From NCBI GenBank assembly GCA_964358155.1, contig CAYHPA010000002.1:3406-67405 (forward strand): 64,000 nucleotides of DNA, written 5' to 3'. The position numbers and the translations under genes are program-made. The notes below the pieces were generated by a model. The model was not told the origin of the DNA. It was given only the letters and a program-made list of their open reading frames with translations, and did no database searches. Numbering within the stretch: position 1 is the first letter of the stretch; every line of letters begins with the position of its first letter. Of this stretch, positions 6,982-27,100 are shown piece by piece. Origin of the DNA: an uncultured Chitinophaga sp. (GTDB lineage Bacteria > Bacteroidota > Bacteroidia > Chitinophagales > Chitinophagaceae).

Positions 6982-9873
6982 ATGAAACAGCTGCTGAAGC
7001 ATATTCTTATCATTTGCACTTGCTTTTGCATGCAGGGTGCCGCAGCCCAAACCACCCAAACCATTGCATACACAACAAAAGAAGGCTTGTCTTCCAATTC
7101 AGTTTACCGTACTGCCATTGATCAGCGGGGGTTTTTATGGATCGCCACCGAGAACGGCCTTGCCCGTTTTGATGGAAGGAGATTTGTAACATACACCACT
7201 GCTCAGGGACTTACGGATAATGAGATTGTTGACCTCTTTATCGATAGCAGCGGGGTTATCTGGGCCATTCCTTTTCGCCGGTCGCCCTGCTATTACAACC
7301 CGACAAAAGACAGGTTTGAAAATGAAACATCCGATCCGGAGCTGAATAAAATTGACCTGGCCAACACACACAAAGTACATGTGCTGCGCTATGGCGGTAT
7401 CGGTTTCAGCAATAACCTGCGCCAGCTCTTTATATACAAGAATGGCAAGACAGCAGTGTACAAGGGTTTTATGGCGGTAAAAACAGGTGTGATACAGAAG
7501 ATAGTGGAGTACAGCCCGGATCAGTATCTTTTTTTTGGCGAGGACACCATCCGTTATTTCAGCAACGGAAAAATAACCCGCAATATTCCCTTTGGCAAAA
7601 AACTGATTGCTGCGGAATATGTAAATGGAAAAATGTACCTCGTTCAGGATAAGAGCATCATCACCCTGCGGGTGGATGAAAAAGGAAATTTTTTGAATGA
7701 AGGCGAAAAGCTATATCCTTTTGAACTCAGGATATTTTGCAATACCGGCAAAGGCTTTGCCATCACCTCGCTCAGCGGCAATACCTACCTGCTTGATACT
7801 GCAACATTGGACATTAAAGAAAATGTGTACTCACAGGCACAGGTAAGAAATGTTGTTGAAGACAAAGAAGGGAACACCTGGCTCTCCACCATGGAAAACG
7901 GGCTGATAAAAATCCAGCAGAAAAGGATTTCTTCTTTTACCGGCGTGCCGGCCATACAGCAAAACTTCAATGCGCTGGTAAAAACAAGAAACATCATTGC
8001 CGGCACCAACAACGGAGAAGTGTTTGTTTACGATGGCTTATATGGTGTTCGCCGTATTCCGCTTACGGACGACCGGAATATTGACGCCTGGGTGCGCCGG
8101 ATAGTAAAAACCAGCAAAGGCATTTATGTTTCCACACAAACAGGCTCTTTTCTCCTGGACATGGAAGGAAACAGCATAATAGAAAAATTTATCGGATCCC
8201 AAAACAGGTCTTCCAAGACGGCCGTGTTGCTGAATGACTCTATACTCGGCCTCGGCACTCATTCACAGGCATGGAAGTATAACCTGAATACCGGAATCTA
8301 TATTGACAGTATTGCCAAAAGGATCATTTCGCTTGTTGCTGATAAGCGGGGCAAAGTGTATATCGGTTCCAATGATGGATTATACCGGTGGGACAAAGAC
8401 AGCCTGTTTGCTTTTGGTACAATACAAAACACATTCAACTACCGGGTAAATACGATGACCTGCTCTCCCGATAATATCGTGTGGGTGGGGCTTGGCTCCG
8501 ATTCATTGCTCGCAATGAAAGAAGACAAGCTGATCGCTTCGCTGCCATTGGGCGGGGCCATTCCCGGCAATATCTGCAAATCACTTTTTTGTAATAAGGC
8601 AGGTGAACTGTGGCTCGGCACCAACAAAGGATTGAACAGGATATATTACAGCTATGCAAAAAATGAATTCAGCTATACCAATACTTATTTCGGCACTGCC
8701 GACGGATTGATTGGGGAGCAGGTAAATGATATCACTTTCAATAACGACACTATTTATGTTGCCACCAGCGGGGGCATCAGCTATCTGCCCGCTAATCTTT
8801 CTTTGCCTGTGGCCGACATCGCCACTTTCATCACCCGCATCAGCATTAATGGGCAGGATGAAGAGCTGAAAAAGAACTATACAGTTCCCTTTGGAAAAAA
8901 TGATATCACTATTGAATTCTCCGGAGTTGACCTTACCGGTTTTGTTCCCTTGTTTGAATACAGCATCAATAACAGCGACTGGAAACAGACAGATAAGATA
9001 GAACTGAAAAAACTGGCGCCGGGTTCTTACAGCATTAAAATAAGGGCCATCAAAAGAGATGGTAAAGCATCAGCACAGACGGCGGTTGTGGACGTAAAAA
9101 TCAAAACACCGTTTTGGAGGAACCCCGTCTTCTGGATCATTTTTGTTTTGCTTTCGTTCAGCGCCATCATTTATTTTATCCAAAAAAGAAATAAACAAAG
9201 ACAGAAAATTGCGGTAACAAAAGTTTTGACCGAAAAAAAGATCGCCGAATTGGAGATGCAGGCATTAAAGGCGCAGATCAACCCGCATTTTGTTTTCAAT
9301 TGCCTTAATTCTATCAAAGGGTTTATCTATGATAAGAACTATGAGCAGGCAGATAAATACCTGGATAAATTTTCTGAGCTCCTCCGCAGTACGATGGACA
9401 ATGCCGATGCTTCCATTATTTCACTGGAAGAGGAAATAAAATATCTCGATACTTACCTGCAATTGGAAAAACTCCGCTTTGGCGATAAGTTTAATTATAC
9501 CATTGAGGCAAACGAAAATGTTGACACGGGGAATACATTTGTTCCGGCCATGCTGCTGCAGCCCTATGTGGAGAATGCTATCCGGCATGGCGTACGGTTC
9601 CTGGAAAATACAAAGGGAAAAATCACTATTCTTGCGCATAAAGAAAAAGACCGGCTGGTTTGTGAGATTGATGACAACGGTATCGGCAGGGAGAAAGCAG
9701 CGCAGCTAAAGAGCAGTATGCATATTGAATACCAGAGCCGCGGCATGCAGTTGAGCAGGCGCAGGGCCGAACTGTATAATATCCGTCAGCAGATCGTTGA
9801 TAAAAAAGATGAGAAAGGAAATGCAACCGGAACAACCATTGTTATCAGCATACCATTAGAATTAAAGCCATGA
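6982..9873 (+). CDS. sensor histidine kinase, LytS/YehU type, with a periplasmic two-component-regulator propeller / Y_Y_Y region
   Basis: It has a signal peptide and a repeated propeller-like N-terminal half, then a TM helix (FWIIFVLLSFSAIIYFI). QINPHFVFNCLNSI is the LytS-type His_kinase motif, and LLQPYVENAIRHG plus DDNGIG form the ATPase. Confidence 0.85.
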   Translation: MKQLLKHILIICTCFCMQGAAAQTTQTIAYTTKEGLSSNSVYRTAIDQRGFLWIATENGLARFDGRRFVTYTTAQGLTDNEIVDLFIDSSGVIWAIPFRRSPCYYNPTKDRFENETSDPELNKIDLANTHKVHVLRYGGIGFSNNLRQLFIYKNGKTAVYKGFMAVKTGVIQKIVEYSPDQYLFFGEDTIRYFSNGKITRNIPFGKKLIAAEYVNGKMYLVQDKSIITLRVDEKGNFLNEGEKLYPFELRIFCNTGKGFAITSLSGNTYLLDTATLDIKENVYSQAQVRNVVEDKEGNTWLSTMENGLIKIQQKRISSFTGVPAIQQNFNALVKTRNIIAGTNNGEVFVYDGLYGVRRIPLTDDRNIDAWVRRIVKTSKGIYVSTQTGSFLLDMEGNSIIEKFIGSQNRSSKTAVLLNDSILGLGTHSQAWKYNLNTGIYIDSIAKRIISLVADKRGKVYIGSNDGLYRWDKDSLFAFGTIQNTFNYRVNTMTCSPDNIVWVGLGSDSLLAMKEDKLIASLPLGGAIPGNICKSLFCNKAGELWLGTNKGLNRIYYSYAKNEFSYTNTYFGTADGLIGEQVNDITFNNDTIYVATSGGISYLPANLSLPVADIATFITRISINGQDEELKKNYTVPFGKNDITIEFSGVDLTGFVPLFEYSINNSDWKQTDKIELKKLAPGSYSIKIRAIKRDGKASAQTAVVDVKIKTPFWRNPVFWIIFVLLSFSAIIYFIQKRNKQRQKIAVTKVLTEKKIAELEMQALKAQINPHFVFNCLNSIKGFIYDKNYEQADKYLDKFSELLRSTMDNADASIISLEEEIKYLDTYLQLEKLRFGDKFNYTIEANENVDTGNTFVPAMLLQPYVENAIRHGVRFLENTKGKITILAHKEKDRLVCEIDDNGIGREKAAQLKSSMHIEYQSRGMQLSRRRAELYNIRQQIVDKKDEKGNATGTTIVISIPLELKP

Positions 9874-9898: not shown

Positions 9899-9980
9899 AC
9901 CACATAGACACATAGTAAACAATAGAAATGCACACATAGATTTTCTATGTGTAACCTATGTATCTATGTTGCTATGTGGT
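9899..9980. repeat. heptad hairpin repeat element, CACATAG type, copy 3
   Basis: ACCACATAG-ACACATAG-...-CACATAGATTTTCTATGTG-...-CTATGTGGT. It lies between the kinase stop (9873) and the response regulator start (9997). Confidence 0.8.
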
Positions 9981-9996
9981 GAAACCAACAACTAAA

Positions 9997-10761
9997 ATGA
10001 AAAACATCTCCACCATAATCATTGATGATGAGCCGAAGAATATCAAATTGCTGCAACAAATGCTGGCAGCCCATTGCCCGCAGGTGGAAGTGGTGGCCAC
10101 CGAAAGCGATGCAAAAAAAGGATTGCAACTGCTGGGAGAAAAAACACCACAGCTTTTATTCCTTGATGTGGAGATGCCGCACCTGAATGGTTTTGACCTG
10201 TTGAAAAAACTGGAACCGGTTCTGTTTGAAGTGATATTCGTAACCGCCTACAGCCATTACGCCATTAAGGCCTTTGAGCACCATGCCACGGGCTATATCA
10301 CCAAACCCATCAATGCAGAAAAGCTTATTGCAGCAGTGAATATAGCCGCCAAAAGAATTGAAGAAAAAAGCGTCAACAAAAATCTTTTTTCTTTGCTCGA
10401 ACAAACATCAAGGCAAACCACTTCTGATAAAATTCCCCTCTCTACCGGCAATGGGTTATTGTTTGTAAAGATCGCCGACATCATGTATTGCGAAAGCAGC
10501 GGCAACTACACCCATTTTTATATGAATGATGACCGGAAGATCGTTGTGTCCCGCCAATTGGGGGAATATGAAAAGCTGTTACCAGACAATAATTTTACCC
10601 GCATACATGACAAGTATATCATCAACCTGGCTTATATCAAAGAATATATCAAAGGCAGCGGCGGTGAAGTGCTGCTGGAGAACGGAAAAGAAATTCCTGT
10701 TGCCTCAAGGCGGAAAGAAGATTTTTTGGCAAGGTTTGAAAGGTGGATCAGGCGAAAATAG
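9997..10761 (+). CDS. LytR/AlgR-family response regulator (REC + LytTR DNA-binding domain)
   Basis: I chose the ATG at 9997 (MKNISTIIIDDEP). The receiver has LFLDVEMPHLNGF. The LytTR C-terminal domain has IPLSTGNGLLFVKIADIMYCESSGNYT. Confidence 0.9.
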   Translation: MKNISTIIIDDEPKNIKLLQQMLAAHCPQVEVVATESDAKKGLQLLGEKTPQLLFLDVEMPHLNGFDLLKKLEPVLFEVIFVTAYSHYAIKAFEHHATGYITKPINAEKLIAAVNIAAKRIEEKSVNKNLFSLLEQTSRQTTSDKIPLSTGNGLLFVKIADIMYCESSGNYTHFYMNDDRKIVVSRQLGEYEKLLPDNNFTRIHDKYIINLAYIKEYIKGSGGEVLLENGKEIPVASRRKEDFLARFERWIRRK

Positions 10762-14666: not shown

Positions 14667-14953
14667 ATTTAAAGGATAGGTGACTTATAGAATTACCGCC
14701 AACTTGTGTATTTGCGAAAGTACGAACCTTTGATTTTTCAGCTTACCAAATATTGTTGTCCCGGTACTCGTTATATTAAATACGTTTATGCAAGATTTTT
14801 ACAGGGTTGAAAGAGTTGCGCAAATGCAACCTCGCCAATAATTCTTTCCTGCACTATTTAGCCCGTTAGCCCCTTTCACACTTATACAACCACACCGCAC
14901 ATCTATACAATCCCGCCCAAAACAGTTTTTCTTCCCCCCATTTTTACACTGGC

Positions 14954-14973
14954 ATCCCGATAGCTATCGGGAT
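14954..14973. repeat. perfect 20-bp palindrome ATCCCGATAGCTATCGGGAT, 29 nt upstream of the operon start codon
   Basis: Read directly. The inner 16-mer CCCGATAGCTATCGGG recurs at 53189-53204. Confidence 0.85.
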
Positions 14974-15002
14974 TGCCTCCCATCATTTCAAATCACTGCG
15001 AT

Positions 15003-17351
15003 ATGAAAAAACTAAAACTCCTTCTGCCGGTATTATTATTCAGCACCCTGCTCTTCGGCCAGGCCGGGCAGATCAACCAGATCAATATTGTAAGCTTTAC
15101 GGTAAAACCCGTCTTGCCCGGCGCTGTTGACAGTTGGCTTACTACCCCCGCAGCATTGATAATGGTGGCGCAAAAAGTACCCGGCCCTGTGCCATTGAGG
15201 GAACCGAGACTGGTGGTTCAGATACGGAGCGGCAGCGCTGTTATCTGCGGCAATAGTATAGCTACCGGCAAACAAATTGATCCGTTTGATGTAAGAACAT
15301 TTACAACGGCCGACCTCGTTGGCATACTTGGCAACTGTCATGAATTAAAAGAAGGCACTTATACCATCTGCGCCCAGTTCTTCAATATTGATAAGATCGC
15401 CATCAGCCGCGAAGTGTGTAAAGACTTCAGAGTGGAAGCGCCCAAATCAACCGAGTACGCACCGCCGACGTTGATAACACCGGAAGACGAAAAGAAATTT
15501 TCTGTAACGCAATTACAAGGCCCGGTAATGTTTCGCTGGACTCCGCTTGTTCCAAAACCCAGGGACCCCGTTACCTATCGCCTAAAAGTCTGGCAACTGA
15601 TGCAGGGACAAACCGGCACACAGGCCATCCGCACCAACACGCCTTTAATAACAAAAGATGTGGAAGGCGGCCTTACACAAACAACAGTAAACGCCATACT
15701 CACCGGCCCCTGCAGGCCACCTTATCTCTGCGATTTTATATGGAATGTGCAGGCGCTGACAAGAGATGGCAAACCCATTGGCAATAATAACGGAACCAGC
15801 GAACCATTTCGTTTCAGTGCTGCTTCAGAAAATAACGCCTGCCCTGCAAACTCATTGCCCGAAAATAATAAACAGTTCAGCCTCGCAGAAGCAAAACAGT
15901 CCATATTGTTTACGTGGACAAATACTGCAACACCCGGCACTGCCGCTGTTTACAGGTTAAAAGTATGGCAGCTAATGCAGGGGCAAAACGGCGCACAGGC
16001 CATGAAGACCAATACACCGGTCGTTACAAAAGAGGTAAGAAACGCAACAGAAGTAACAGTGAGTGGAATTTACACCGGCCCATGCAGACCGCCTTATCTA
16101 TGCGATTTCATCTGGGCGGTGGAAATGATGGATGCCACAGGCCGTGTAAGCTGCACCAGCGAGGGTACAATATTCCGGGTAAAAGAAGAAGAACAACATC
16201 AGCAACCGTGTCCAACTGCAATTTTCCCTGAGGACAAGAAAAAATTTACACAACGGGAAGCCAAAGCCCCGGTAACTTTTAAATGGACACATACGGCAAC
16301 ACCGGGAACAACTGCTACATATCGCCTAAAAGTATGGCAACTGATGCAGGGGCAAAATGCATCACAGGCCATGAAATCAAACAACCCCATCATCACAAGG
16401 CAAGTAAGAGATGCGGGAGAAGTGACGGTGAACGGAATTCTGACCGGCCCCTGCAGGCCGCCTTATCTCTGCGATTTTATCTGGGCCGTGGATATGATGG
16501 ATGCCGCAGGCAGAACCATCTGCACCGGAGAAGTGATGAACTATAAAATAGCCAACAATGATATTGATATACAGATTGACAGTGTTGATGTGGAATGCTG
16601 CAAAAACGGGAAGCAGAATATTTATATCAAACTGAAGAATAATCTTGCTACGCCGGTTAAGATTACACAAATCAAGATTGATAAAGTGAATGGGGTGACA
16701 GCGAATATCATCCCTTCGCCCCTTACACCGATATTGGCTGTAACTATTCCGGGTAATGGCACCCAGGTGTTTGCCGGGCAGATCAATTGTATTGATACAG
16801 CGAAAATCATCCGCTTCTTTGTAGCGGCAGAAGACCCGGTTGACAATGCCATTACCGAAACAGAAGTGGAAGCAGATACACTGCATTGCGCCTGTGATGC
16901 CTGTGATGAAAAACATTTTGTAATGAATGTGCCGGCGCCGGGGCAAATCAACACTACGGCCAGCAGCATTTCATTTAATCAGCCGATAACCATTGTTGCC
17001 ACACCACCGAAAACCGTAAAGACCATCACGGCAGAGCTGGTATATTTTGAAATGAAACCGGAAAATGATCAGTGCATTCCTTGCGATAAAGATGCAAAAC
17101 TGTACGGCCATTTTACCAACGGCACCAACAGCCAGACATGGAACGGGGCGCAATCCAGCCTGAGCATAACTATCACCACACCTGTAACACCCTGCTGCAG
17201 CACTACTTTCCGATGGTGCATCCGGTACAAAGTGGAGTTCAGCGACTGCACGGTGTGTACCAAAGTAATTTGCTATGAAAAGAAAAAAACCGGCTGCACA
17301 CCCACTGGTGGCGGCGGACAGGATGACCCAATTAAAAACCTTCCAAAATAA
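15003..17351 (+). CDS. secreted cysteine-rich repeat protein (operon gene A)
   Basis: The ATG at 15003 gives MKKLKLLLPVLLFSTLLFGQ, a signal peptide. There are three tandem ~115-120 aa repeats containing YRLKVWQLMQGQ...TGPCRPPYLCDFIW, and a C-terminal 8-Cys module. I recognise no family. Confidence 0.8.
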   Translation: MKKLKLLLPVLLFSTLLFGQAGQINQINIVSFTVKPVLPGAVDSWLTTPAALIMVAQKVPGPVPLREPRLVVQIRSGSAVICGNSIATGKQIDPFDVRTFTTADLVGILGNCHELKEGTYTICAQFFNIDKIAISREVCKDFRVEAPKSTEYAPPTLITPEDEKKFSVTQLQGPVMFRWTPLVPKPRDPVTYRLKVWQLMQGQTGTQAIRTNTPLITKDVEGGLTQTTVNAILTGPCRPPYLCDFIWNVQALTRDGKPIGNNNGTSEPFRFSAASENNACPANSLPENNKQFSLAEAKQSILFTWTNTATPGTAAVYRLKVWQLMQGQNGAQAMKTNTPVVTKEVRNATEVTVSGIYTGPCRPPYLCDFIWAVEMMDATGRVSCTSEGTIFRVKEEEQHQQPCPTAIFPEDKKKFTQREAKAPVTFKWTHTATPGTTATYRLKVWQLMQGQNASQAMKSNNPIITRQVRDAGEVTVNGILTGPCRPPYLCDFIWAVDMMDAAGRTICTGEVMNYKIANNDIDIQIDSVDVECCKNGKQNIYIKLKNNLATPVKITQIKIDKVNGVTANIIPSPLTPILAVTIPGNGTQVFAGQINCIDTAKIIRFFVAAEDPVDNAITETEVEADTLHCACDACDEKHFVMNVPAPGQINTTASSISFNQPITIVATPPKTVKTITAELVYFEMKPENDQCIPCDKDAKLYGHFTNGTNSQTWNGAQSSLSITITTPVTPCCSTTFRWCIRYKVEFSDCTVCTKVICYEKKKTGCTPTGGGGQDDPIKNLPK

Positions 17352-17357
17352 ACTGCA

Positions 17358-20300
17358 ATGAAAAAGAATACCTACTTCTTATCAATTGTGCTTTTCGTTG
17401 CAGTTCTTTTTTCTGCAACAAGCAACAAACTGTTTGCGCAAACCTGTAACCAGGTAGAGATACTCTACACCGGCAATGATTGTTTTGAAAGAGACCACCA
17501 GGATCCCGGCGGCGCCTCCGGCGGAAAAAATTGCAAGGAGATTGCTGTATGTGTGAACCAACCTTATAATTACTCCTCGTCCATCACAGGTGTTGGCTGG
17601 ACATACAACTGGACGGTAACAGGCCCGGCAAGTGTTACCATCAATCCCAACAACACAAGTCCGAACATCAGCATCGTGTGGCCGCAGATAGGTGTGTTTA
17701 CATTAACACTGACAGCCACCGATCCATCAGGCAACATATTTACTTTTTGTCTTAAAGTGAATGTGAAAGAAAAACCTAATGCCAATTTTACCATTGCGCC
17801 GAATAATGTTTGTGCCAATTCAACCATCACATTTACCGGCACCACCACCTTCTCTTCCGGGTTCATGTCTTCCTGGAATTTTGGAGATCCCCCGTCCGGC
17901 AGCAGCAACTATACCACTGTTTCTGGAAATACTGCGGTAACACATCTGTACACAGCGCCGGGAACTTATACCGTTACACTGATCACCTACAGTTTTATGA
18001 CAGTAGGCGGTGGCGGAGTTCCTAACGAACCTCCGGTAATCAAAACATGCTGCGCCGATACCATCACCAAGACTGTGACCATACTGCCGGGAACATTGCA
18101 GATTGAATGTATCAGCACCGTTTGCCCCGGCGATACTGTTAAGTACACGGCAGTTGGTTGTGGCAGCGTTACATGGCTTCCCGTTGTGGGAGGAACGATG
18201 ATTGCATCAACAGCAACCACTATCACTATTGTGTGGGGTAATGGAACAGCACAGGGCCAAATACAGGCACAATGCCCGGGCGGATGTATCGCATCAGTGC
18301 CGGTGCCGATCATTCCAACCAATCCTGTTATTGTTGGTAATACCAGCCCATGTAATACTTCAACAACATCTTATACACTGCCTGTATTACCTGGAACATT
18401 TTATACCTGGACGCTGACGAATATCAGCACGGCAACGAACTATAATAATTTACTCAACACTTATCCTGATAACAATACCGTTTGGATTAACTGGGCATCA
18501 GCGCCTCCGGGAACATATCAATTAACCATCAATCTTGACAACAAGCATATCTGTTGCAGCAGCAACGGCTCGCTTACTATTAATCCATCAGATAAATGGA
18601 CGGCTTATGCCGACCAGACAATTTGTATGGGAACGAATGCAAACCTTTCAGTTTTTCCTGTAGCAGGTACGTTTAACTGGACGGTCCTTCCGCCAAACGG
18701 CGGGGTAACTCCTCTTACCGGAACAGGGCCTACGTTCAATCCAACATTCGCCAATGCAGGCAGCTATCTTGTTGAGGTAGTGGAAACCGCTAATACTTAT
18801 TGCAATAGCGGAGCAGCTAATCCGCAGCAAATAAAAGTAACGGTGCTTAACACACCAGCGCCAGGAAATATTACCGGCCCGGCAACTGGTTGTGCAGGCT
18901 CGCAGTACACTTATACAATGAGCACAAATGCGCCAACCGGTTTTCATTATTACTGGTCCATTACCGGTGGTGCAGGCACATTTCAGCCGGGCAATCTTCC
19001 TAACGCTACCGGCAATTCTGCAACGATACTCTGGACAACGCTTCCCGGAACGATTTCGGTTGTATTGCAGGCAAATGGCTTTCCATCATGTCCGTCAACT
19101 CCGGTTACATTTACTGTAACTGCAGCAACGGTTGGCAACATTACCTGCAATCCTCCCACTCCACCTACTTGTATGAATGTGTGTGTGGATGGAACCGGAT
19201 CATATACATTAACAGGGGGCACATTACCTCCGGGAGAAGTAATTACATGGAGCATCACTCCATCCAGCCAGGGAACGATCATATCGGGCCAGGGAACAAA
19301 CAGCATTACAGTATTATGGCACGGAACTACCGGCGTAGGTCCTTGGCCTGCTACTATCAATGCAACCACATCCTGTGGTAATGCAACGCCATTAACGGGC
19401 ATCATGGTTTATCCCAAATTCGCAGTTACAATATCAGCAAGCGGTATTGATATCTGTCAGCCAGGTGGAGTTTCTCTGACAGTAAATGGCGCTCCCAGCG
19501 GATCTACAATTGTATGGTCTCCGACAAACATTAATAATATAACAACACCCGGTACTTATACCGTTACTGTAACAAAAGGCGGATGCACCGCTACAGCCAC
19601 CTATGTTGTGGAAGATCCATTTGCAATTATTCCGGTAACATGCGGAGTAGGCACCTGCAACGGCACCGCCACCAACGAAGCGCTGGGTGTAATAGTGGTA
19701 AAACCGGTTGTCGGCACATTCAGTTTTCAATGGTATTCCGGAACCTATCCATCAGGAACAGCCATAGGAGGAGCGACATCTGCCAATTACACAACAACAA
19801 CGCATGGTAATTTTTATGTAGTGGTCACTTATGGAACCTGTACTAAATATGTAAGCTTTACTGTAAAAAAAGTTTGTTGCCCCGATGTCAACAATCCGCA
19901 GATCACCAATGTTACAAGGAATAGTTGCAACAGCTATACTTTCACCGGCACCACGCCTAATCCAACCGGCGCCACCATCACCTGGAATTTTGGCGACGGC
20001 AATACAGCCACCGGTGCATCGGGAGTGCCCATCACACATGTGTATAATACAGCGGGAGTTTATTGCGTTACATTCTGTGTAGGCCCGCCTTCACCCAATC
20101 CAACAAGCTGCACGGGTAATTGTACAGCAACAACTGTTACTGTTCCTATACAGGCAAACTTCCTGTACACACTTGGCTGCAACGGATGTCTGAATGTAAC
20201 CAACACATCAACCGTTATCACCAGCAATCCATCGTATGTTACTTACTTATGGAATTTTGGCGATGGTAATACATCCACTGCACAAAATCCGGGGCCGCAT

Positions 20301-22910
20301 TGCTATGCAATCGCCGGCAACTATACTGTTACATTGACCATAACCTATAATGACGGACAGGTAAGTTGCACCAGCACGGTATCGTACAATGTAAACTATG
20401 TTCCGCTGGCTATCAGTGTTAATCCATCTCCTGTTTGTACAGGAGCGCCAACAACATTCAGTATTGCCGGTTCACCATCCTTTACTATTGTTTCGTGGAC
20501 ATGGAATTTTGGCGATGGATTTACCGCATACACTCCGTCAAGCACACATATATATAATTTGGCCGGGCCATATACTGTTACACTAACAGTTATAGACGGA
20601 CTTGGCAACACCTGCACCGCTACCAGCAACATTACTGTATTGCCCGGTATCGGCCCTTGCACTATTCTTCCCGCTTATCTATGTCCGGGAAGTCCTGCTA
20701 CATTAACAGCTCCGAATATAGTCGGCGCCACTTATTTGTGGGAATTTGAATCATCACCCAACACCTGGGTGTCAGCGCCGGGAACAAACAATGCAATAAC
20801 CTATACAACGACGGTGCCCGGTTTTTATCATGTGGTCATTACCGGAGCAAACGGTTGTCCCTGCACCAGCAATAAGGTAGAAGTAAAAGCTGCTCCAAAA
20901 CCAAAGGCTATTATTGCTGCAGCGCCATCTTCCAAACTTTGCGGACCGGGAATGGTAACATTGAGCAGCCCCAATCATTTGCCGGGATATACCTCCGACT
21001 GGTATGCGAATGGAGTTTATGGAGCGCCATTATCATCGGGAATGATGTTCATGACCAGCGTTTCAGTTACCACTGTCTTCAATCTTGTTTTATTCAATGA
21101 ATATGGTTGTTCGGATACCTGTTCGCTGACGATAACAGTGAACCCTATTCCCGCACAGCCAATCATTACATCCAGCCCGACATTGTGTGAAGGGGTGCCC
21201 ATAACACTGGCGGTTACCAACTATGCCAATAATATAACCTGGAATACCGGCGCCAATACAACCAGCATCACTGTTTTCTCAGCGGGAGTTTACACAGCCA
21301 CCTATACCGATCCGGTTACAGGTTGCAGCAGCAGTAAGAACATCAAGGTGAACAGAAGGCCGCCTACGGATCTGTTCCCGCATTTCTGCGACAGCATTCC
21401 ATGTACCTGTCGTGATAGTACAGGTAACTTCACTATTTATGCACCGCTGCCATTGATCGGCGCATATGCCAGCATCTATAATATACAATGGTTCTTTAAC
21501 GGAAATCCTGTGGGAGGAAACACGCCGACCTACACACCGGCTGTAACAGGAACCTATCATATTATATTGACGGATCCGATGACGGGTTGCAAGGACACCA
21601 GCGCCACTTATTCAATCGTTGTTCCTCCATGTGATACCTGCGATTGCAAAGAAAGCAAGTGGGGCGATATTGATTTGACAGAGGGAGAAAATATTCCCGG
21701 CAAGGCAAAAGCCAATATTGGAAACCCCGGCACCGGCAATCCCGTCGGCGGACCACAAAAGCTGAAATGCAACAGCAACTATGTATTAAAGTGTAACCAA
21801 CCTTATACCATCAATGCAAGCTATATCTGTAAGGATACACTTTGCCCGCCAAAGGTTACGTATTCACTGCAACCACCAAGTGGTTCACCGATAACAGGCA
21901 ATGCACCATTAACGTTCACACCTTCCCTAACAGGTGTATATATCCTTACACTCTATGGCTGGTGTGGAAATAAGATATGCGACAGCTGTGTTATCGATCT
22001 TACAGTGCAATGTGATCCGCTCTGTGATTGCAAAGGAAGCAAGTGGGGAGAAAAAACATACATGGTTAACAATGTGAGCAAGCCGCTCAACTGTATGAAG
22101 TCCACCGATAAGCCGATTGATGTGAAATGTGGCGACCAGATCACTATCAATGCCAATTATATGTGTGCCGGCGCCAACTGCCCCGGATCGGTAACCTATG
22201 CATTGAATGCACCTTACGGAAACAGCACTGGTAATATTTTACCGCCGCTGGTATTTAACGCTTCAATGACAGGAACCTATACTGTTACACTGTATGGCTG
22301 GTGCGGAACGACTAAATGTGACAGCTGTATAATAAGGTTTAAAACAGTATGCCCTGTAGTTGACAGCGCCTGCTGCCCATATCAGATAAAAGTGGATACA
22401 ACGAAAGTCACTACAACGTACAGCCAGCAGTATAATGCCACGGTGCTAACAGAAAACTTTACCATCAGTGGACTGGCAGCTGTACCGCTTACAGAAGTAA
22501 GGGCTGAAGTGCTGAGCTATACCATCACGGATAATTACAATAAAGAATGTATGAAGTGCCTGAACCTGCCTTACACATGGGCCAGCGTACAGTCAGCAAC
22601 CAATCTCGGCAATCCGGCAGTACCGCCGAAGATCACCATGTATAATTCAACGGTGCATCCGTTCAATCCGACGGGAGCGGGGCAGTATAAAAACCCGAGA
22701 GAGGTGGTATGGAATAACGGCAGTACATTTATTATCAATAACAATTCACAAGTGGGTATGAACTTCCTGCTGCCGCCGCCACCGGCCATTGACTGTTGTG
22801 AGTTCAAAGGAAAGATATGTGTGAAGTTCACTTTCCGCGACAACAATTGTAAAGAATGTGAGGTGATAGCCTGTTTTGAATTTGTAATTAAAAGCAAAAA
22901 GCCATTCTAA
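17358..22910 (+). CDS. giant (1850 aa) secreted PKD/Ig-like repeat protein (operon gene B)
   Basis: It has a signal peptide (LFVAVLFSATSNKLFAQ). Several PKD-type motifs are present (WNFGDGNTATG...THVYNTAGVY, WNFGDGNTSTAQ, WNFGDGFTAY), followed by many Thr/Gly/Asn-rich Ig-like segments. Two tandem Cys-rich repeats and an 8-Cys C-terminal module end the protein. There is no T9SS CTD. Confidence 0.85.
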   Translation: MKKNTYFLSIVLFVAVLFSATSNKLFAQTCNQVEILYTGNDCFERDHQDPGGASGGKNCKEIAVCVNQPYNYSSSITGVGWTYNWTVTGPASVTINPNNTSPNISIVWPQIGVFTLTLTATDPSGNIFTFCLKVNVKEKPNANFTIAPNNVCANSTITFTGTTTFSSGFMSSWNFGDPPSGSSNYTTVSGNTAVTHLYTAPGTYTVTLITYSFMTVGGGGVPNEPPVIKTCCADTITKTVTILPGTLQIECISTVCPGDTVKYTAVGCGSVTWLPVVGGTMIASTATTITIVWGNGTAQGQIQAQCPGGCIASVPVPIIPTNPVIVGNTSPCNTSTTSYTLPVLPGTFYTWTLTNISTATNYNNLLNTYPDNNTVWINWASAPPGTYQLTINLDNKHICCSSNGSLTINPSDKWTAYADQTICMGTNANLSVFPVAGTFNWTVLPPNGGVTPLTGTGPTFNPTFANAGSYLVEVVETANTYCNSGAANPQQIKVTVLNTPAPGNITGPATGCAGSQYTYTMSTNAPTGFHYYWSITGGAGTFQPGNLPNATGNSATILWTTLPGTISVVLQANGFPSCPSTPVTFTVTAATVGNITCNPPTPPTCMNVCVDGTGSYTLTGGTLPPGEVITWSITPSSQGTIISGQGTNSITVLWHGTTGVGPWPATINATTSCGNATPLTGIMVYPKFAVTISASGIDICQPGGVSLTVNGAPSGSTIVWSPTNINNITTPGTYTVTVTKGGCTATATYVVEDPFAIIPVTCGVGTCNGTATNEALGVIVVKPVVGTFSFQWYSGTYPSGTAIGGATSANYTTTTHGNFYVVVTYGTCTKYVSFTVKKVCCPDVNNPQITNVTRNSCNSYTFTGTTPNPTGATITWNFGDGNTATGASGVPITHVYNTAGVYCVTFCVGPPSPNPTSCTGNCTATTVTVPIQANFLYTLGCNGCLNVTNTSTVITSNPSYVTYLWNFGDGNTSTAQNPGPHCYAIAGNYTVTLTITYNDGQVSCTSTVSYNVNYVPLAISVNPSPVCTGAPTTFSIAGSPSFTIVSWTWNFGDGFTAYTPSSTHIYNLAGPYTVTLTVIDGLGNTCTATSNITVLPGIGPCTILPAYLCPGSPATLTAPNIVGATYLWEFESSPNTWVSAPGTNNAITYTTTVPGFYHVVITGANGCPCTSNKVEVKAAPKPKAIIAAAPSSKLCGPGMVTLSSPNHLPGYTSDWYANGVYGAPLSSGMMFMTSVSVTTVFNLVLFNEYGCSDTCSLTITVNPIPAQPIITSSPTLCEGVPITLAVTNYANNITWNTGANTTSITVFSAGVYTATYTDPVTGCSSSKNIKVNRRPPTDLFPHFCDSIPCTCRDSTGNFTIYAPLPLIGAYASIYNIQWFFNGNPVGGNTPTYTPAVTGTYHIILTDPMTGCKDTSATYSIVVPPCDTCDCKESKWGDIDLTEGENIPGKAKANIGNPGTGNPVGGPQKLKCNSNYVLKCNQPYTINASYICKDTLCPPKVTYSLQPPSGSPITGNAPLTFTPSLTGVYILTLYGWCGNKICDSCVIDLTVQCDPLCDCKGSKWGEKTYMVNNVSKPLNCMKSTDKPIDVKCGDQITINANYMCAGANCPGSVTYALNAPYGNSTGNILPPLVFNASMTGTYTVTLYGWCGTTKCDSCIIRFKTVCPVVDSACCPYQIKVDTTKVTTTYSQQYNATVLTENFTISGLAAVPLTEVRAEVLSYTITDNYNKECMKCLNLPYTWASVQSATNLGNPAVPPKITMYNSTVHPFNPTGAGQYKNPREVVWNNGSTFIINNNSQVGMNFLLPPPPAIDCCEFKGKICVKFTFRDNNCKECEVIACFEFVIKSKKPF

Positions 22911-22915
22911 GCTGT

Positions 22916-24655
22916 ATGAGAAATATTAAAAAAACATCCATTGCTGCTTTGCTTTTTTGGGGCTCTATTGTTACGGCCCATGGACAGGGCGATTCAGCAA
23001 AAAGTCAATTCAGCATCAGCGGAACCATGGGAGTTAGCTATGAGTATTACGGACTAAGCCGTAAACCAAGCGGCTGGACGGGCTTTACTCCCCGCAAACC
23101 ATGGAACCAGCTGCGGTTTATTTTTGCGCCGGACATGAAGTTTGGAAAAAACTTTTCGCTGCCCTTCAACTTCAATTTTGCGATGAAGCCCACCAACTAT
23201 GCAGGGCCTTATGCCGGAATAAACAAACAAAGCTTCGGCCAGTTCATCACCAACCCGATGAACAGTTTCGGATTGAACCCAAAATACAAATGGGCCGAAC
23301 TGCAATTGGGCACACAGTATCTTAATTATTCCAACCTTAGCACCGGTGATATCGGCGTGTTCGGCGCCGGAGTTGATCTGCGCCCCGGCACCTATATTTT
23401 TAAATTCTTTACCGGCTTATCGCAGCAGGGCATCAATTATTTGAATGGGCCGCCAACGGTGAACGGTGCTTACAAAAGAAAAAACTGGATGATGTCAATC
23501 GGTAAAGCCAGGGAAGGAAAATATGAAGCAGCCATAAATTTTGTAAAAGCCAAAGACGACAGCAGTTCAATTACAACACCACCAATCACCGTTAAGCCGC
23601 AGGAAGGATTCACCATGAGTTTTGCAGGAAAGGCTTTTTTCAAGAAAGGCTGGTATGTAAATGCTGAAGTGGCACAGTCGCTGTACACGAAGAACCTGCA
23701 GAACCCGGAAGACAGCAGCAAGCCATCATTCAAACCATTTATTGAAGGACATACTTCCACGGTGAAAGATTATGCTGCAGAAGGGGCATTTGGTAAGAAA
23801 GGACAAAACCTTGATATCGGCGCAAAAGTAAAATATATCGGAGCGGGTTTTCAAACACCGGGTTATCCCTTCATGCTGCCCGACCGGGTTGATTATACAT
23901 TGAACACAAGGTTCAATGCAGTAAAAGATAAGAACGGCGGGTATAAAATGAATGTGGTGGCCAGTGTGGGCCAGCGGATCAACAATGTGAGCAACACCAC
24001 ACTGAAGGCAAAACAATTTATCGGCACACTCAACTGGTTCACGCAGTTCAACGAACACTGGAACCTGAATGTAAGCTTCAACAACTTTGGATTTGAAACG
24101 CCCAGTGGTATCAATCCTTATGGTATTAAAAATGTAAGCAATGATTTTGGCCTGAACCCAAGTGTAACATGGGGAAACGATAATGTCATTCACCTGCTGA
24201 GCCTGAACTATAATTACAGTAAGTACACGGAGCGGGATGTGATAACGGCTGTCATTACTTCCAACAACACCCACACAGCGCTGATGACCTGGGTGCCCAC
24301 TTTTTTGAAAAAAAGTATTTCGCCCGATTTCAGCCTGATGTATTTTTATAATTCCGTGCCGGGATTCAAACTTACGCTTATCACTTTCAGTGCTGGCGCT
24401 TCTATGCAAGCGGCTAAAAAGAAAATGAACCTGCGGGCACAGCTGCAATACAATTATTCAAAGACCAGCAGTTTTACAAACAATAACAATATCATTGCCA
24501 CACTGAGTGATGACTGGAAGATTTCTGACCGGGTAACATGGAATATTTACATCAGCACCAATCATTTTAAATATGGGAACGAAATAACACCCAATAATGC
24601 GAGTTACCTGGAAAGCAATGTGCGCACCGGGTTCCTATACAGGTTTGGTAAATAG
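22916..24655 (+). CDS. predicted outer-membrane beta-barrel protein (operon gene C)
   Basis: It has a signal peptide (AALLFWGSIVTAHGQ). Aromatic-rich alternating hydrophobic stretches run throughout (FSISGTMGVSYEYYG, NVVASVGQRI, WNLNVSFNNFGF, FLYRF). The start lies 5 nt after the gene B stop. Confidence 0.65.
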   Translation: MRNIKKTSIAALLFWGSIVTAHGQGDSAKSQFSISGTMGVSYEYYGLSRKPSGWTGFTPRKPWNQLRFIFAPDMKFGKNFSLPFNFNFAMKPTNYAGPYAGINKQSFGQFITNPMNSFGLNPKYKWAELQLGTQYLNYSNLSTGDIGVFGAGVDLRPGTYIFKFFTGLSQQGINYLNGPPTVNGAYKRKNWMMSIGKAREGKYEAAINFVKAKDDSSSITTPPITVKPQEGFTMSFAGKAFFKKGWYVNAEVAQSLYTKNLQNPEDSSKPSFKPFIEGHTSTVKDYAAEGAFGKKGQNLDIGAKVKYIGAGFQTPGYPFMLPDRVDYTLNTRFNAVKDKNGGYKMNVVASVGQRINNVSNTTLKAKQFIGTLNWFTQFNEHWNLNVSFNNFGFETPSGINPYGIKNVSNDFGLNPSVTWGNDNVIHLLSLNYNYSKYTERDVITAVITSNNTHTALMTWVPTFLKKSISPDFSLMYFYNSVPGFKLTLITFSAGASMQAAKKKMNLRAQLQYNYSKTSSFTNNNNIIATLSDDWKISDRVTWNIYISTNHFKYGNEITPNNASYLESNVRTGFLYRFGK

Positions 24656-24709
24656 TAATTCAACGCAGTCAGCGGTTGAAAACCCTGACGGCGTTACAAA
24701 AAAATAAAT

Positions 24710-25711
24710 ATGAAAAAAATATTTTTGATAGCAGCCATTTGTTTTGTTGCGAAAACTTCTTTGGCGCAATTCAACACACAACTGGTGGTAATACCCAACC
24801 CGCCGGGGGCGCTGGCCGACTGGGATAATAAGACGCTTACCTATATGGTGGCCGGCGGCGGCGCAGGCCTGGTGGCACCGGTACTGATAAAAACCACTAT
24901 TAAAACCGTAAGCGGGGAAGTGGTAGCAACAAAAAATCTTGCCAAAGCAGCAACCTTTATCGCCGGCCAAAACAATCTTGTTTTGTATGTGAACGATGTG
25001 ATGCCATTGGATATAATGGTCTTTAACGGTTCTTATAAATCATCTATGGACAAAACCGGAAAACTTCCTTCCGGAAGCTATCAGCTTTGTGTGCAATTAG
25101 TGAATCCTACTGATTACCGGATAATGAGTGAAGAACGATGCAGGATATTTAACCTGGCGGCTTACCAGTTACCCATTCCTGTAATGCCTGCCAATGAAAT
25201 GATACTGGATATTGAAAAAGCACAATCCGTCATTACTTTTCGCTGGACGCCGGTAACACCCAACACCGGGATGATGCTCACCTATCGTGTCACCGTTTTT
25301 GAAATATTGCCGGGGCAAACAGCGATGCAGGCATTGCGCAGCAATCTTCCCTTGCTGGCAAAAAATATTGTGGGCACCACGCAGTATATCTGGCAGCCGC
25401 AATTGGGAATGACAGCCTGCTGCAAGGGAGACCCCGACTTTGATCTGAGAATGAAAGATACCACAAGAAAAACTGGTAACCCCGATCTGGAACCAGATGT
25501 GCTTGCCCGTGCCGGTACGGAGGAGGATGCTTATGCATTTATCTGGACCCTACAGACATTTGACAGCCAGGGGAGACCATTTGGCGATGGAAATGTGAAC
25601 GGCGATGGCATCAGCGAACCGAATATATTTTTTGTTGACCGAAGACCGCCGGACATGAGAAGATCAGGTCCGCCTGCCCGTACAACAAATTTGACAGGAA
25701 AAAAGAATTAA
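24710..25711 (+). CDS. secreted protein, short paralogue of operon gene A (operon gene D)
   Basis: It has a signal peptide (IAAICFVAKTSLAQ). Its N-terminal domain aligns by eye with gene A residues ~36-158. It carries one copy of the FRWTP...TYRVTVFEILPGQTAMQALRSN...YAFIWTLQ repeat. Confidence 0.75.
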   Translation: MKKIFLIAAICFVAKTSLAQFNTQLVVIPNPPGALADWDNKTLTYMVAGGGAGLVAPVLIKTTIKTVSGEVVATKNLAKAATFIAGQNNLVLYVNDVMPLDIMVFNGSYKSSMDKTGKLPSGSYQLCVQLVNPTDYRIMSEERCRIFNLAAYQLPIPVMPANEMILDIEKAQSVITFRWTPVTPNTGMMLTYRVTVFEILPGQTAMQALRSNLPLLAKNIVGTTQYIWQPQLGMTACCKGDPDFDLRMKDTTRKTGNPDLEPDVLARAGTEEDAYAFIWTLQTFDSQGRPFGDGNVNGDGISEPNIFFVDRRPPDMRRSGPPARTTNLTGKKN

Positions 25712-25763
25712 GCCCATGATGAAAACGCCACCGAACCAGGGGCTGTCTCAAAAGTATTTTCAA

Positions 25764-25853
25764 CACAGAGGCACAGAGAAGATGAGCAGCACAGAGAGTT
25801 GATACCAGGCCAACGATTTCTCTGTGTAACTCTGTTAACTCATATTCTCTGTG
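25764..25853. repeat. heptad hairpin repeat element, CACAGAG type, copy 4
   Basis: The left arm has three CACAGAG units (25764, 25772, 25790). The right arm has CTCTGTG (25820), CTCTGTT (25830) and CTCTGTG (25847). Confidence 0.75.
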
Positions 25854-25896
25854 TTTTCACTCACTTTTGAGGCGGTCTCTTTTTATTTTTGCAGCG

Positions 25897-26361: not shown

Positions 26362-26367
26362 CGGTCT

Positions 26368-26443
26368 GTACTAGCTAAACTATTGTTCAGCAAAACTGTA
26401 AAAAAGAGAAAAATTTGTTTGATTTTTTACACAGCTCATGTTA
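26368..26443 (+). mobile_element. IS110-family insertion sequence 3' remnant, copy B: the last ~10 degraded codons plus the right end
   Basis: It aligns with 12250-12324: GTA(C/T)..A..CTAAA(C/T)TATTGTTCAGCAA.AC.GTAAAAAA...AAATTTGTTTG.TTTTTTACACAG.TCATGTTA. Similarity ends at the same point (CATGTTA) in both copies. Confidence 0.55.
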
Positions 26444-26454
26444 GCATCAGGCCA

Positions 26455-27009: not shown

Positions 27010-27100
27010 CTGAGAGGGCTTGCTGCCAACTCTGTAATTTACACAACATCTTGTATATTAATTGCTGATACTCACCGACTATTTATACAAATGAATCAAC

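Follow-up and report, generated by a model that had tools for sequence, protein, structure and literature searches.

Known routes to the cell surface in the Bacteroidota are lipoprotein export and the T9SS. Within the same phylum as the locus described here, SprB-SprF of Flavobacterium johnsoniae has the gene of a giant PKD/Ig protein followed by a barrel gene; the giant carries a conserved domain at its C-terminus, and the operon includes accessory genes. In two-partner secretion (FhaC/FHA), the gene of a dedicated barrel adjoins that of a huge Sec-dependent repeat protein, in which a conserved module of ~250 aa lies right behind the signal peptide, and the barrel (TpsB) has POTRA as its N-terminal soluble part. 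LptD and MtrB are of 26-strand size without a plug of their own and have a conserved partner of ~300 aa encoded alongside (LptE and MtrA); known barrels of ~26-strand size enclose or pass such a partner, and the N-terminal soluble domain of LptD is homologous to the free proteins LptA and LptC. In the chaperone-usher pathway (FimD/PapC), folded Ig-like domains pass successively through a wide barrel, which has 24 strands in FimD, and a conserved two-sandwich protein is encoded next to variable fibre subunits.

Each of these traits has an observed or proposed counterpart in, or in distant relatives of, a four-gene locus (genes A to D) of an uncultured Chitinophaga sp., contained in the window of 64,000 nucleotides that was the whole stretch of DNA analysed. 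The locus differs from SprB-SprF in that B lacks CHU_C/TIGR04131, C has 579 aa compared to ~300 aa for PorP_SprF, and its C-terminal domain is cysteine-rich, sometimes internal and present in exactly two proteins per locus. Unlike in two-partner secretion, the conserved module is a tandem beta-sandwich and not a beta-helix cap, and the second cargo, B, has no N-terminal module. LptD-LptE and MtrB-MtrA have no sequence similarity to C, whose partners are giant repeat proteins, and an usher plug, N-terminal domain and C-terminal domains are all missing from the locus, in which A and B each consist of one multi-domain chain and are not polymerising pilins.

Layout and conservation of the locus

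The four genes are co-oriented and separated by 6, 5 and 54 nt (A-B, B-C and C-D, respectively), exactly as a previous, sequence-only reading of this DNA had placed them (Table 1). The mechanical ORF of gene A begins at TTG 14973; the ATG at 15003 was taken as the start because a canonical signal peptide results from it. In a consensus scan of positions 14000-27200, terminator-like sites were not in excess (13 found compared to 14.5 expected), and none was detected on the + strand in the gaps between the four genes. Signal peptides, also proposed for all four products, were confirmed directly from the N-terminal sequences, each of which combines a basic n-region and a hydrophobic core with a cleavage site between [AG] and Q. 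Such sites fit the 'Q-rule' described for substrates of signal peptidase I in Bacteroidetes (PMC5837995). The conserved lipobox cysteine was absent from the aligned N-termini of A-D. The description of the products as cysteine-rich stood for A and B (29 and 86 Cys, or 3.7% and 4.65%) and fell for D (5 Cys, 1.5%, one of them inside the signal peptide), and C has no cysteine.

When Pfam and NCBIfam were searched, curated-family matches within the four proteins were limited to B, and A, C and D gave no above-threshold match. The HMM check suggested by the sequence-only reading left A, C and D in no curated family, in agreement with its statement that, beyond the PKD motifs of B, no domain could be placed in a known family.

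Among ~80 Chitinophagaceae loci, one per genome, essentially all of those with sufficient flanking sequence show the genes in the order A-B-C-D, and gene A orthologues are at position 1 in all related loci. Homologues of C formed 740 clusters (63-94% identical among the best 120 listed) and those of D formed 788 (49-100% among the best 120 listed, the 100% entry being the window's own protein); therefore, the genes are real, beyond chance. The best-conserved of the four is C, with 60-92% identity across 80 genomes, whereas rapid divergence and a varying number of repeats characterise A and B. Outside the module the neighbours are housekeeping genes, with RecX on its 3' side in 59 loci. These observations support the four genes as a real conserved unit, which is shared by many Bacteroidota of soil and freshwater.

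Table 1. Features of the window; coordinates refer to its first nucleotide as position 1.
Feature	Position	Strand	Details
Sensor histidine kinase	6982..9873	+	Reg_prop propeller repeats, His_kinase PF06580, HATPase_c (Pfam)
LytTR-type response regulator	9958..10761	+	Response_reg 1.9e-22, LytTR 2.2e-18
Low-GC insert	10848-14666		4.2 kb
Promoter-like box CATTTTTACAyTGGCA, then hairpin (14951-14977)	14939..14977	+	5' of gene A
Gene A	15003-17351	+	782 aa counted from ATG
D-like N-terminal module of A	15060..15818	+	~aa 20-272
Two extra subdomain-2 copies in A	15840..16547	+	~aa 283-349, 404-468; motif F[RK]WT..YRLKVWQLMQGQ
Cys-rich C-terminal domain of A	16962..17297	+	~aa 654-765; CxxC ... CC-x6-C-x9-C-x2-C-x4-C
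Gene B	17358-22910	+	1850 aa
Tandem pair of Cys-rich Ig-like domains in B	21630..22322	+	~aa 1425-1655; by eye from translation
Cys-rich C-terminal domain of B	22482..22898	+	~aa 1709-1847
Gene C	22916-24655	+	579 aa
Gene D	24710-25711	+	333 aa
Type-B cargo	30923-34054	-	CHU_C E=1.2e-20
Type-B cargo	34166-37315	+	CHU_C E=4.9e-20
Genuine PorP/SprF	37345-38238		PorP_SprF E=5.6e-58; 12.7 kb downstream

The predicted barrel and its partner module

The AlphaFold2 model of C contains 26 strand elements (pLDDT 64.7, pTM 0.54), with short turns alternating with longer loops; as this model confidence is moderate, the strand count is read as ~24-26 and not as exact. Foldseek matched the model exclusively to large barrels, namely LptD (E=3e-6), FimD (E=2.9e-5), MtrB (best query TM-score, 0.42) and TonB-dependent transporters, and a profile search of PDB sequences with C returned nothing relevant. 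Thus, the barrel that had been proposed for the 579-aa product is borne out by structure prediction, and C has the features generally expected of an outer-membrane beta-barrel, that is, a signal peptide, strands and barrel-only fold matches. Its beta-signal is atypical (the protein ends in ...YRFGK, with Phe at -3); in distant members of the family the last residue is Phe, as is classical for outer-membrane proteins. For C, the prediction is an outer-membrane beta-barrel of ~26 strands without plug or periplasmic domain. Its family, a large one of Bacteroidota barrels (~24-26 strands, neither plug nor periplasmic domain; 1354 clusters at 50% identity), is uncharacterised, and all named members in the collections searched were annotated as hypothetical.

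Several described barrels were considered and rejected as identities for C. No profile match was found to LptD/OstA (PF04453) or MtrB/PioB (PF11854), the best structural matches, so that the likeness is at the level of the fold only. Two-partner secretion (T5bSS) was discarded as no POTRA, ShlB, Bac_surface_Ag or Haemagg_act match was obtained in Pfam and C has ~26 strands instead of 16. The chaperone-usher pathway gave no Pfam Usher or PapD match, FimD being one of many generic fold matches.

Gene D encodes a signal peptide, a tandem beta-sandwich module and a conserved basic proline-rich tail (DRRP..R.SGPP.R). Its AlphaFold2 model (pLDDT 77.6) shows two sandwich domains, for which Foldseek found generic MG/fn3/Ig tandems only, with no chaperone-like structure named among the top 50 matches; as the fold is a generic tandem beta-sandwich, it is uninformative on function. 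Neither a lipobox nor a CxxCH motif was found in D, which is neither a lipoprotein nor similar to LptE, and neither a jellyroll nor a cytochrome.

The first and last genes had been described as paralogues, and they are (BLASTP E=2e-21), with the match confined to one N-terminal module (A ~10-271 compared to D 4-307). That this paralogy reflects one discrete N-terminal module, which marks the partner of the barrel family-wide, had been overlooked. In two distant lineages, the D module is fused to the N-terminus of the barrel itself (P0254, E=1.6e-40; P0338, E=5.4e-12) through a linker of ~90 aa, in the position where TpsB has POTRA. In 7/7 distant lineages sampled, the gene adjoining the barrel is headed by the D module, fully or in part, and in the Chitinophagaceae the module is restricted to gene 1 and gene 4. 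The D module is an obligate genomic partner of the barrel, whether free-standing (D), heading A or barrel-fused. Both the fusions and the invariant adjacency in distant lineages lend weight to the earlier proposal that the barrel is a dedicated outer-membrane partner; the export or display proposed with it is putative.

Genes A and B and their common C-terminal domain

Behind its signal peptide, the product of gene A has a D-like module, two extra copies of subdomain 2, an Ig-like region and a cysteine-rich C-terminal domain, an architecture from which a secreted adapter protein is predicted. The D-profile HMM matched the whole ORF at 3.1e-45 and the extra subdomain-2 copies at 1.6e-10 and 7e-11. 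Depending on the genome, gene 1 has from none to seven such copies, which probably form a stalk.

Gene B encodes a giant secreted-type array of PKD/Ig-like beta-sandwiches, with 86 Cys, that ends in the C-terminal domain shared with A. In Pfam it matched PKD_4 (7.8e-48), PKD (2.1e-40) and Ig_7 (1.8e-8), and in NCBIfam its sole match was PKD-type; no D module was found in it. Ig_7 is commonly found together with CHU_C, and the PKD and Ig_7 types of B are those of T9SS surface cargo and extracellular adhesins. Moreover, B is ~29-30% identical to a neighbouring ORF in three other loci (L002, L007 and L023), the one in L002 being a called CHU_C cargo. These domains and this likeness to CHU_C cargo suggest an extracellular character of B. 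By eye, each of its two tandem cysteine-rich Ig-like domains opens with CDCK..KWG and closes with C..K.CDSC in the translation.

The sequence-only reading had also overlooked that A and B share a cysteine-rich C-terminal domain. It spans ~110-140 aa with eight conserved cysteines, and was matched by its HMM at 4e-30 in A and 6.1e-49 in B. When the gene-1 and gene-2 types were compared by hhalign, the probability was 98.1% (E=8.9e-14); reciprocal HMM searches matched 55/55 and 66/67 sequences, and BLASTP of A against B aligned all six cysteines of the terminal cluster. The domain is present in exactly two ORFs per locus in each of 60 loci, and no other copy was found in the flanks of these loci or in the window. 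It lies at or near the C-terminus, usually with a basic tail at the end; in 20 orthologues it is internal, 140-160 aa before the end and followed by another domain, and an Ig-like cysteine-rich domain of the B type comes after it in 20 orthologues from other loci. It is of the disulfide type. As it is absent from the distant modules and confined to the Chitinophagaceae, it is not a general mechanism of the barrel family.

Models of the complex and candidate regulators

The reading that we prefer, tentatively and with slightly less than even confidence, is that the four genes encode one envelope complex around the dedicated barrel, forming a cell-surface fibre. C and D would be the conserved core in the outer membrane, by which A is anchored or exported, with D located inside the barrel or at its periplasmic opening, matching its placement in the fusions. 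A would dock onto C and D by means of the D module that it carries itself, its subdomain-2 repeats, variable in number between genomes, would be the stalk, and its C-terminal domain would pair with that of B and so hold the giant, which would be the distal, probably adhesive, part of the fibre. The wide barrel would pass or hold strings of small beta-sandwich domains; it is proposed as the conduit or anchor because A, B and D have Sec signals without a lipid anchor or a T9SS signal. The pairing of the homologous C-terminal domains of A and B is an assumption, and a common third partner may read both instead. Surface location, adhesion and export are likewise putative, with the extracellular domain types of B and the rapid, repeat-variable evolution of A and B as indirect indications of a surface-exposed adhesin. 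The logic would resemble that of two-partner secretion, with its N-terminal recognition domain, combined with an usher pore, from parts unrelated to both. Against the fibre, A, B and D could remain periplasmic, and the outer-membrane crossing of B, which has no D module, is unexplained unless it occurs with or after A.

More doubtful is the broader claim that C, D and the giants headed by the D module make up a hitherto unrecognised, T9SS-independent route of large non-lipoprotein proteins to the Bacteroidota surface, in which a plug-less barrel of ~26 strands, with the D module as its receptor in trans or fused, recognises the homologous N-terminal module of its cargo and threads or anchors the sandwich strings. 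Equally doubtful is that such a route, made of unrelated families and extending over well over a thousand clusters, would correspond in function to two-partner secretion and usher systems. The module unites a T9SS-type giant PKD/Ig protein with three undescribed families and has no T9SS signal; with its own large barrel it is kept across hundreds of species, the barrel family and the marker N-terminal module being phylum-wide. If the barrel anchors or exports its partners, this would be a new envelope machine in ecologically dominant soil and freshwater bacteria, and annotation would gain three new domain families, namely the barrel, the D module and the eight-cysteine C-terminal domain. Were the proteins to stay in the periplasm, a 26-strand barrel with a sandwich module fused or in trans would be a new outer-membrane architecture, and the fusions and strict pairing rules supply concrete testable interfaces.

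Alternatively, D, A and B could hang inward from C as a periplasm-facing scaffold, for example an outer membrane-cell wall tether or integrity device, without export. The N-terminus of an outer-membrane barrel is periplasmic, and it is there that the fusions place the D module; A, B and D have Sec signals only, with no known outer-membrane-crossing signal, and the abundant cysteines fit periplasmic disulfide formation. Three distant barrels have, in addition, a C-terminal SPOR-like, peptidoglycan-binding domain (one alone scored in Pfam, weakly, at E=0.0077), which suggests that at least some of the barrel family acts in the periplasm in connection with the cell wall. Such a scaffold is nevertheless considered unlikely here, as a plug-less barrel of ~26 strands would be an extravagant anchor, the domain types of B are those of extracellular adhesins, the fusion linker is long enough for lumen threading, and fast divergence and repeat variation in A and B compared to a stable C are typical of exposed proteins.

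The T9SS could also export A and B, with the cysteine-rich domain as a third, unrecognised class of signal and C (with D) as the cognate PorP/SprF-like anchor. The two type-B cargoes noted earlier in the neighbourhood were both recovered with CHU_C, and the second forms with the PorP/SprF gene a T9SS type-B pair within the same window (34166-38238). The giant-then-barrel order mimics sprB-sprF, the PKD and Ig_7 domains of B are typical of T9SS cargo, the cysteine-rich domain is at or near the C-terminus, usually with a basic tail, and T9SS cargo genes lie <=10 kb from the distant modules in five loci (L085-L089). In contrast, searches of Pfam and NCBIfam at E<=0.1 detected no type-A domain (Por_Secre_tail PF18962 / TIGR04183) on A, B or D and no type-B domain (CHU_C PF13585 / TIGR04131) on A or B, in line with the earlier claim that the giant lacks both although the genome uses the T9SS. 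The cysteine-rich domain is internal in 20 orthologues, a position poorly compatible with a terminal signal for secretion; it is missing from the distant modules, which nonetheless retain the barrel and a D-headed giant, and the recognition-like element conserved family-wide is N-terminal, not C-terminal. The T9SS reading is, for these reasons, judged quite unlikely. As for C itself, an identity as PorP/SprF (PF11751) was rejected, as no profile match was obtained with the true PorP/SprF of the window as positive control; none of 64 diverse barrel-family members matched PorP_SprF either. Therefore, of the previous statement that the barrel occupies the PorP/SprF position, the gene order holds and the likeness is positional only.

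The previous reading had overlooked that the module is normally preceded directly by the genes of a sensor kinase and a LytTR regulator. At least 26 related loci have orthologues of both upstream of gene 1, in most cases directly (~100-250 nt); in L001 the regulator ends 204 nt before gene 1, and in the window the low-GC insert lies between the regulator and A. From this adjacency, the probable regulators of the module's expression are the Reg_prop kinase and the LytTR protein. A role in nutrient or polymer capture, as in polysaccharide-utilisation loci, with A and B binding substrate, C as a wide diffusion channel and the Reg_prop kinase as sensor, would fit the kinase found upstream in about half of the loci, the large barrel without plug and the PKD/Ig arrays, which are found in surface glycan-binding proteins, but is very unlikely, as the module has no glycoside hydrolase, SusD-like or TonB-box/plug component, its neighbours are housekeeping genes such as RecX, the kinase is missing from Ferruginibacter/Lacibacter-type loci that retain the module, and a channel leaves the fusion of D module and barrel unexplained.

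Upstream of gene A, the promoter-like box was kept in 12 aligned upstream regions. The hairpin that follows it has a predicted dG of -16.9 kcal/mol (z -3.07, RNA fold), and by eye its TGGCA/TGCCA stem is retained via compensatory changes in four loci (L020, L042, L002 and L004).

Gene layout, conservation and upstream region

The four co-oriented genes A to D, and the gaps of 6, 5 and 54 nt (A/B, B/C and C/D) that the sequence-only reading had given for them, were reproduced exactly by the ORF listing; their coordinates are collected in the table with those of the other features. The mechanical ORF of A starts at a TTG (14973), and the ATG at 15003 leads to a canonical signal peptide. A consensus scan of 14000-27200 detected 13 sites resembling terminators, compared with an expectation of 14.5 from shuffled sequence, and none of those on the + strand lay in an intergenic gap. 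The same reading had assigned signal peptides to all four proteins and paralogy to the first and last genes, and both assignments held. At each N-terminus, a hydrophobic core follows a basic n-region and leads to an [AG]|Q cleavage site, the pattern that PMC5837995 describes for Bacteroidetes signal peptidase I substrates, and a conserved lipobox is absent from A, B, C and D. A and D matched at E=2e-21 over A residues ~10-271 and nearly the whole of D. The description of the products as cysteine-rich is right for A and B only, because Cys makes up 3.7% of A, 4.65% of B and 1.5% of D and is lacking in C.

When one genome per GTDB species was scanned, 238 matched stretches encoding a barrel relative were obtained, and all the relatives retrieved were MAGs or metagenome contigs. 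The best 80 of the 238 loci were all from Chitinophagaceae-type MAGs, with labels such as Ferruginibacter, Lacibacter or 'Chitinophaga'. BLASTP with all ORFs revealed that the proposed four-gene synteny is conserved, the order gene 1, gene 2 (the orthologues in the A and B positions), barrel and D being constant in essentially all of these best 80 loci with enough flank. A-B-C-D is a conserved operon-like unit. Gene 1 encodes an A-like protein of 530-1300 aa, the barrel has 566-594 aa and D 283-418 aa; for D, the lengths are those of ORFs called from an ATG, and some of these calls reach too far upstream, into the gene before. At least two size classes were seen for gene 2, a B-like one of 1800-2100 aa and another of ~1040 aa. 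Compared with the window proteins, C was 60-92% identical, D 37-86% and the ORFs assigned to A or B 24-86%. RecX comes next after the module in 59 loci; therefore, the module occupies a stable chromosomal position.

At least 26 other loci have orthologues of a Reg_prop/His_kinase sensor and a LytTR regulator upstream of gene 1; in most of them the pair is its immediate neighbour, with ~100-250 nt between the end of the regulator and gene 1. In the window, this pair is split from A by a 4.2-kb low-GC insert, which looks like an insertion.

Just upstream of A lie a conserved box (CATTTTTACAyTGGCA) and, after it, a hairpin with a dG of -16.9 kcal/mol and a z of -3.07. The inner sequence differs in other loci and the TGGCA/TGCCA stem is retained, with compensatory changes in four of them (L020, L042, L002 and L004). 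A 5'-UTR stem-loop and an operator are both possible readings of the element. For the upstream regions, RNAalifold found no consensus structure, because indels misalign the stems, and Rfam had no match in the window. A sigma-54 promoter, as another reading of TGGCA...TGCCA, was ruled out because the spacing, compared by eye, varies between loci.

Coordinates of the features in the window and of the third protein encoded in distant loci
Feature	Position	Strand	Description
A	15003-17351	+	782 aa; ORF listing
B	17358-22910	+	1850 aa; ORF listing
C	22916-24655	+	579 aa; ORF listing
D	24710-25711	+	333 aa; ORF listing
Conserved box and hairpin	14939-14977		hairpin at 14951-14977
Sensor kinase/LytTR pair	6982-10761
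Low-GC insert	10848-14666		GC 0.35 in 12001-14000; AAA_14/DUF4143 ATPase, 127-aa ORF, RDD/zinc-ribbon membrane protein
T9SS type-B cargo	30923-34054	-	IgGFc_binding, PKD, CHU_C; domain matches
T9SS type-B cargo	34166-37315	+	BNR/Sortilin, SprB, Ig_7, CHU_C; domain matches
PorP/SprF	37345-38238		textbook, directly after cargo 34166-37315; E=5.6e-58
Second two-component pair	27101-30859	-	Reg_prop/Y_Y_Y/HATPase kinase, GerE-type regulator; adjoins CHU_C cargo
dnaN	3067-4182	-	DNA polymerase III beta subunit
ORF and peptidase beside dnaN	4215-6826	+	502-aa ORF without family, trypsin-like peptidase
XdhC and enzyme subunits	58269-63105	-	molybdopterin, 2Fe-2S and FAD subunits of a xanthine-dehydrogenase-family enzyme
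Third protein, L085	16452-18617
Third protein, L087	19049-21040
Third protein, L088	4583-6742
Third protein, L089	18365-20404
Third protein, L091	6858-9440

Domains shared among the module proteins

The terminal cysteines of A and B are identically spaced (CC-x6-C-x9-C-x2-C-x4-C, with a CxxC ahead) and were aligned by BLASTP with E=0.001. Across loci, the gene 1 proteins end in ...CC......C[IV]RY....C..C....CY.KKK and the B-type proteins in ...DCCELKGKICVKFTFRD..CKECEVI.CF.F.IKKK. HMMs of the two types, built separately, gave mutual matches in 55/55 and 66/67 cases (median E 1.5e-15 and 4.8e-10), and hhalign aligned them over 109 columns with a probability of 98.1% and E=8.9e-14. In each of 60 loci the HMM of this C-terminal domain matched exactly two ORFs, and in another 15 it matched one; there was no other match in the locus flanks or the other 50 kb of the window. 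Of the module proteins, precisely the two upstream ones have this second domain in common. A homologue search with its profile returned only 37 fragments of 81-238 aa, the candidates being apparently length-limited. In 20 proteins the domain is internal, with one more Cys-rich Ig-like domain after it, a position that speaks against a strictly terminal secretion signal and argues for an interaction or structural domain.

The model of D, obtained with good confidence (pLDDT 77.6), shows two beta-sandwiches together with a disordered insert, and its basic, proline-rich tail is conserved. Foldseek matched it only to generic tandem sandwiches (complement MG domains, fn3, Ig and FXIII), and LptE-like, LptA-like, PapD-like and alpha-2-macroglobulin readings were rejected; a lipoprotein was also discarded, because the Cys in the signal peptide is not conserved. 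Within Chitinophagaceae, this tandem module is confined to D and the N-terminus of the gene 1 product. Gene 1 carries none to seven extra copies of the second subdomain across genomes (L003-L082), with seven in the 1296-aa protein of L026, and its length varies as a consequence. The variation of genes 1 and 2 is a length and architecture polymorphism of variable partners.

The D module was found fused N-terminally to the barrel through a linker of ~90 residues in two distant barrel representatives, P0254 (881 aa, E=1.6e-40) and P0338 (865 aa, on a contig of 66% GC, E=5.4e-12). The gene adjacent to the barrel starts with the module, full or partial, in 7/7 distant lineages with readable contigs: L084 (a fragment of 190 aa), L085 (1359 aa), L087 (2432 aa, second subdomain only), L088 (1449 aa), L089 (304 aa, partial match at profile positions 70-216), L090 (1240 aa) and L091 (1418 aa). 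The module is genetically inseparable from the barrel and sometimes fused to it. The Cys-rich C-terminal domain was absent from the distant modules L083-L088; instead of it, a third conserved fn3 protein of ~660-860 aa is encoded in L085/L086, L087, L088, L089 and L091. Five of these third proteins are mutually homologous (E ~1e-8 to 1e-97), with weak fn3 matches, and the protein is absent from the Chitinophagaceae module.

The barrel family and comparison with known systems

The homologues of C formed 740 clusters, the closest 120 listed being 63-94% identical; those listed with a source name were all labelled hypothetical protein, and none had a Pfam domain. An AlphaFold2 model from 43 homologues, of moderate confidence (pLDDT 64.7, pTM 0.54), agreed with the barrel proposed from the sequence, being all-beta, with 26 strand elements joined alternately by turns of 3-6 residues and by longer loops, and without a plug or soluble domain. 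Foldseek matched it solely to large barrels at ~9-12% identity, namely LptD and MtrB (26 strands each, the latter with the best query TM-score, 0.42), the FimD usher (24 strands) and TonB-dependent transporters (22 strands). The barrel profile found nothing relevant among PDB sequences. The best-conserved stretches are YSxLSTGD (138-145), GAGFQTPGYPF (309-319) and NNFGF (389-393), the last at a strand end; as the model puts the majority of these residues in loops between strands, they suggest contact with something.

An exhaustive profile search yielded 1354 clusters at 50% identity, 905 of them at E<=1e-10, and C is a member of a large barrel family. In 64 diverse relatives, Pfam detected no family beyond weak generic barrel models (OMP_b-brl in 6/64, followed by BBP2_2, DUF2490 and similar). 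The named members are from Bacteroidota MAGs (Flavobacteriales, Bacteroidia), all hypothetical, and the distant ones terminate in the classical C-terminal Phe. Three of them (P0308, P0317 and P0323) extend beyond the barrel by a long linker of low complexity and a SPOR-like domain at the C-terminus, scored by Pfam in 1/3 and weakly (E=0.0077), a layout that suggests a peptidoglycan tether at the periplasmic C-terminus of the barrel in one lineage.

The sequence-only reading could place only the PKD motifs of the giant B and saw no T9SS C-terminal domain in it, and the searches of Pfam and NCBIfam bore it out. B was the sole protein of the four with matches, to PKD_4, PKD and Ig_7 (the 'CHU_C-associated' Ig domain); A, C and D belong to no curated family, with matches below the cut-off to fn3 in A and DUF481 in C. 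Both types of T9SS C-terminal domain were absent from A and B, and the same searches recognised CHU_C in the two neighbouring genes already taken for type-B cargoes. The region 30923-38238 is a canonical T9SS type-B set and was used as a positive control. As its real cargo/PorP pair was easily detected and C was unmatched, C is not PorP/SprF.

Tests for T9SS C-terminal domains, PorP/SprF, POTRA/Omp85/TPS, usher/PapD, LptD and MtrB were all negative, and a full-text literature search found no description of such a module. Two-partner secretion is the closest system in logic: there too, a barrel is dedicated to a giant cargo, the cargo is recognised through an N-terminal domain and the transporter bears a soluble module at its N-terminus. 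Its POTRA/Omp85/TPS hallmarks are missing here. The unit resembles the SprB/SprF-type T9SS pair in gene order, and C resembles LptD and MtrB in predicted structure. The unit was rated as a putative barrel-dependent surface-protein module built from undescribed families.

Possible roles and neighbouring genes

The preferred reading, a surface fibre with a dedicated barrel, is held tentatively, at somewhat less than an even chance. C and D would form the core, the fusions placing D at the periplasmic end of the barrel or in its lumen. A may dock through its own D module, extend a repeat stalk and hold B by pairing of their C-terminal domains, and B, made of domain types of T9SS surface cargo, would be the distal part. 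A, B and D have no signals other than Sec ones, which makes the wide barrel the obvious candidate for bringing them through the outer membrane or keeping them in it. Known barrels of 24-26 strands let folded Ig-like domains through (FimD) or enclose a partner (LptD-LptE, MtrB-MtrA). That the unit constitutes a distinct export or anchoring pathway is doubtful.

A scaffold facing the periplasm is unlikely. Less probable again is a T9SS-dependent version in which the C-terminal domain would be a new class of signal: the genome has type-B cargoes, but the internal copies of this domain are unlike a strictly terminal secretion signal. A nutrient-capture channel, which the plug-less model of C would suit, is less likely still.

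Among the neighbouring genes, the trio of kinase, GerE-type regulator and CHU_C cargo occurs again in L002, downstream of the module; L007 and L023 repeat the kinase/regulator pair, with a B-like ORF alongside. B is ~29-30% identical to the neighbouring ORF in these three loci, which in L002 is the called CHU_C cargo. At one side of the window lie dnaN and, beside it, the ORF without family and the peptidase. At the other side are XdhC and the subunits of the xanthine-dehydrogenase-family enzyme; homologous families border the distant locus of the D-barrel fusion in L085/L086 as well, probably by coincidence.
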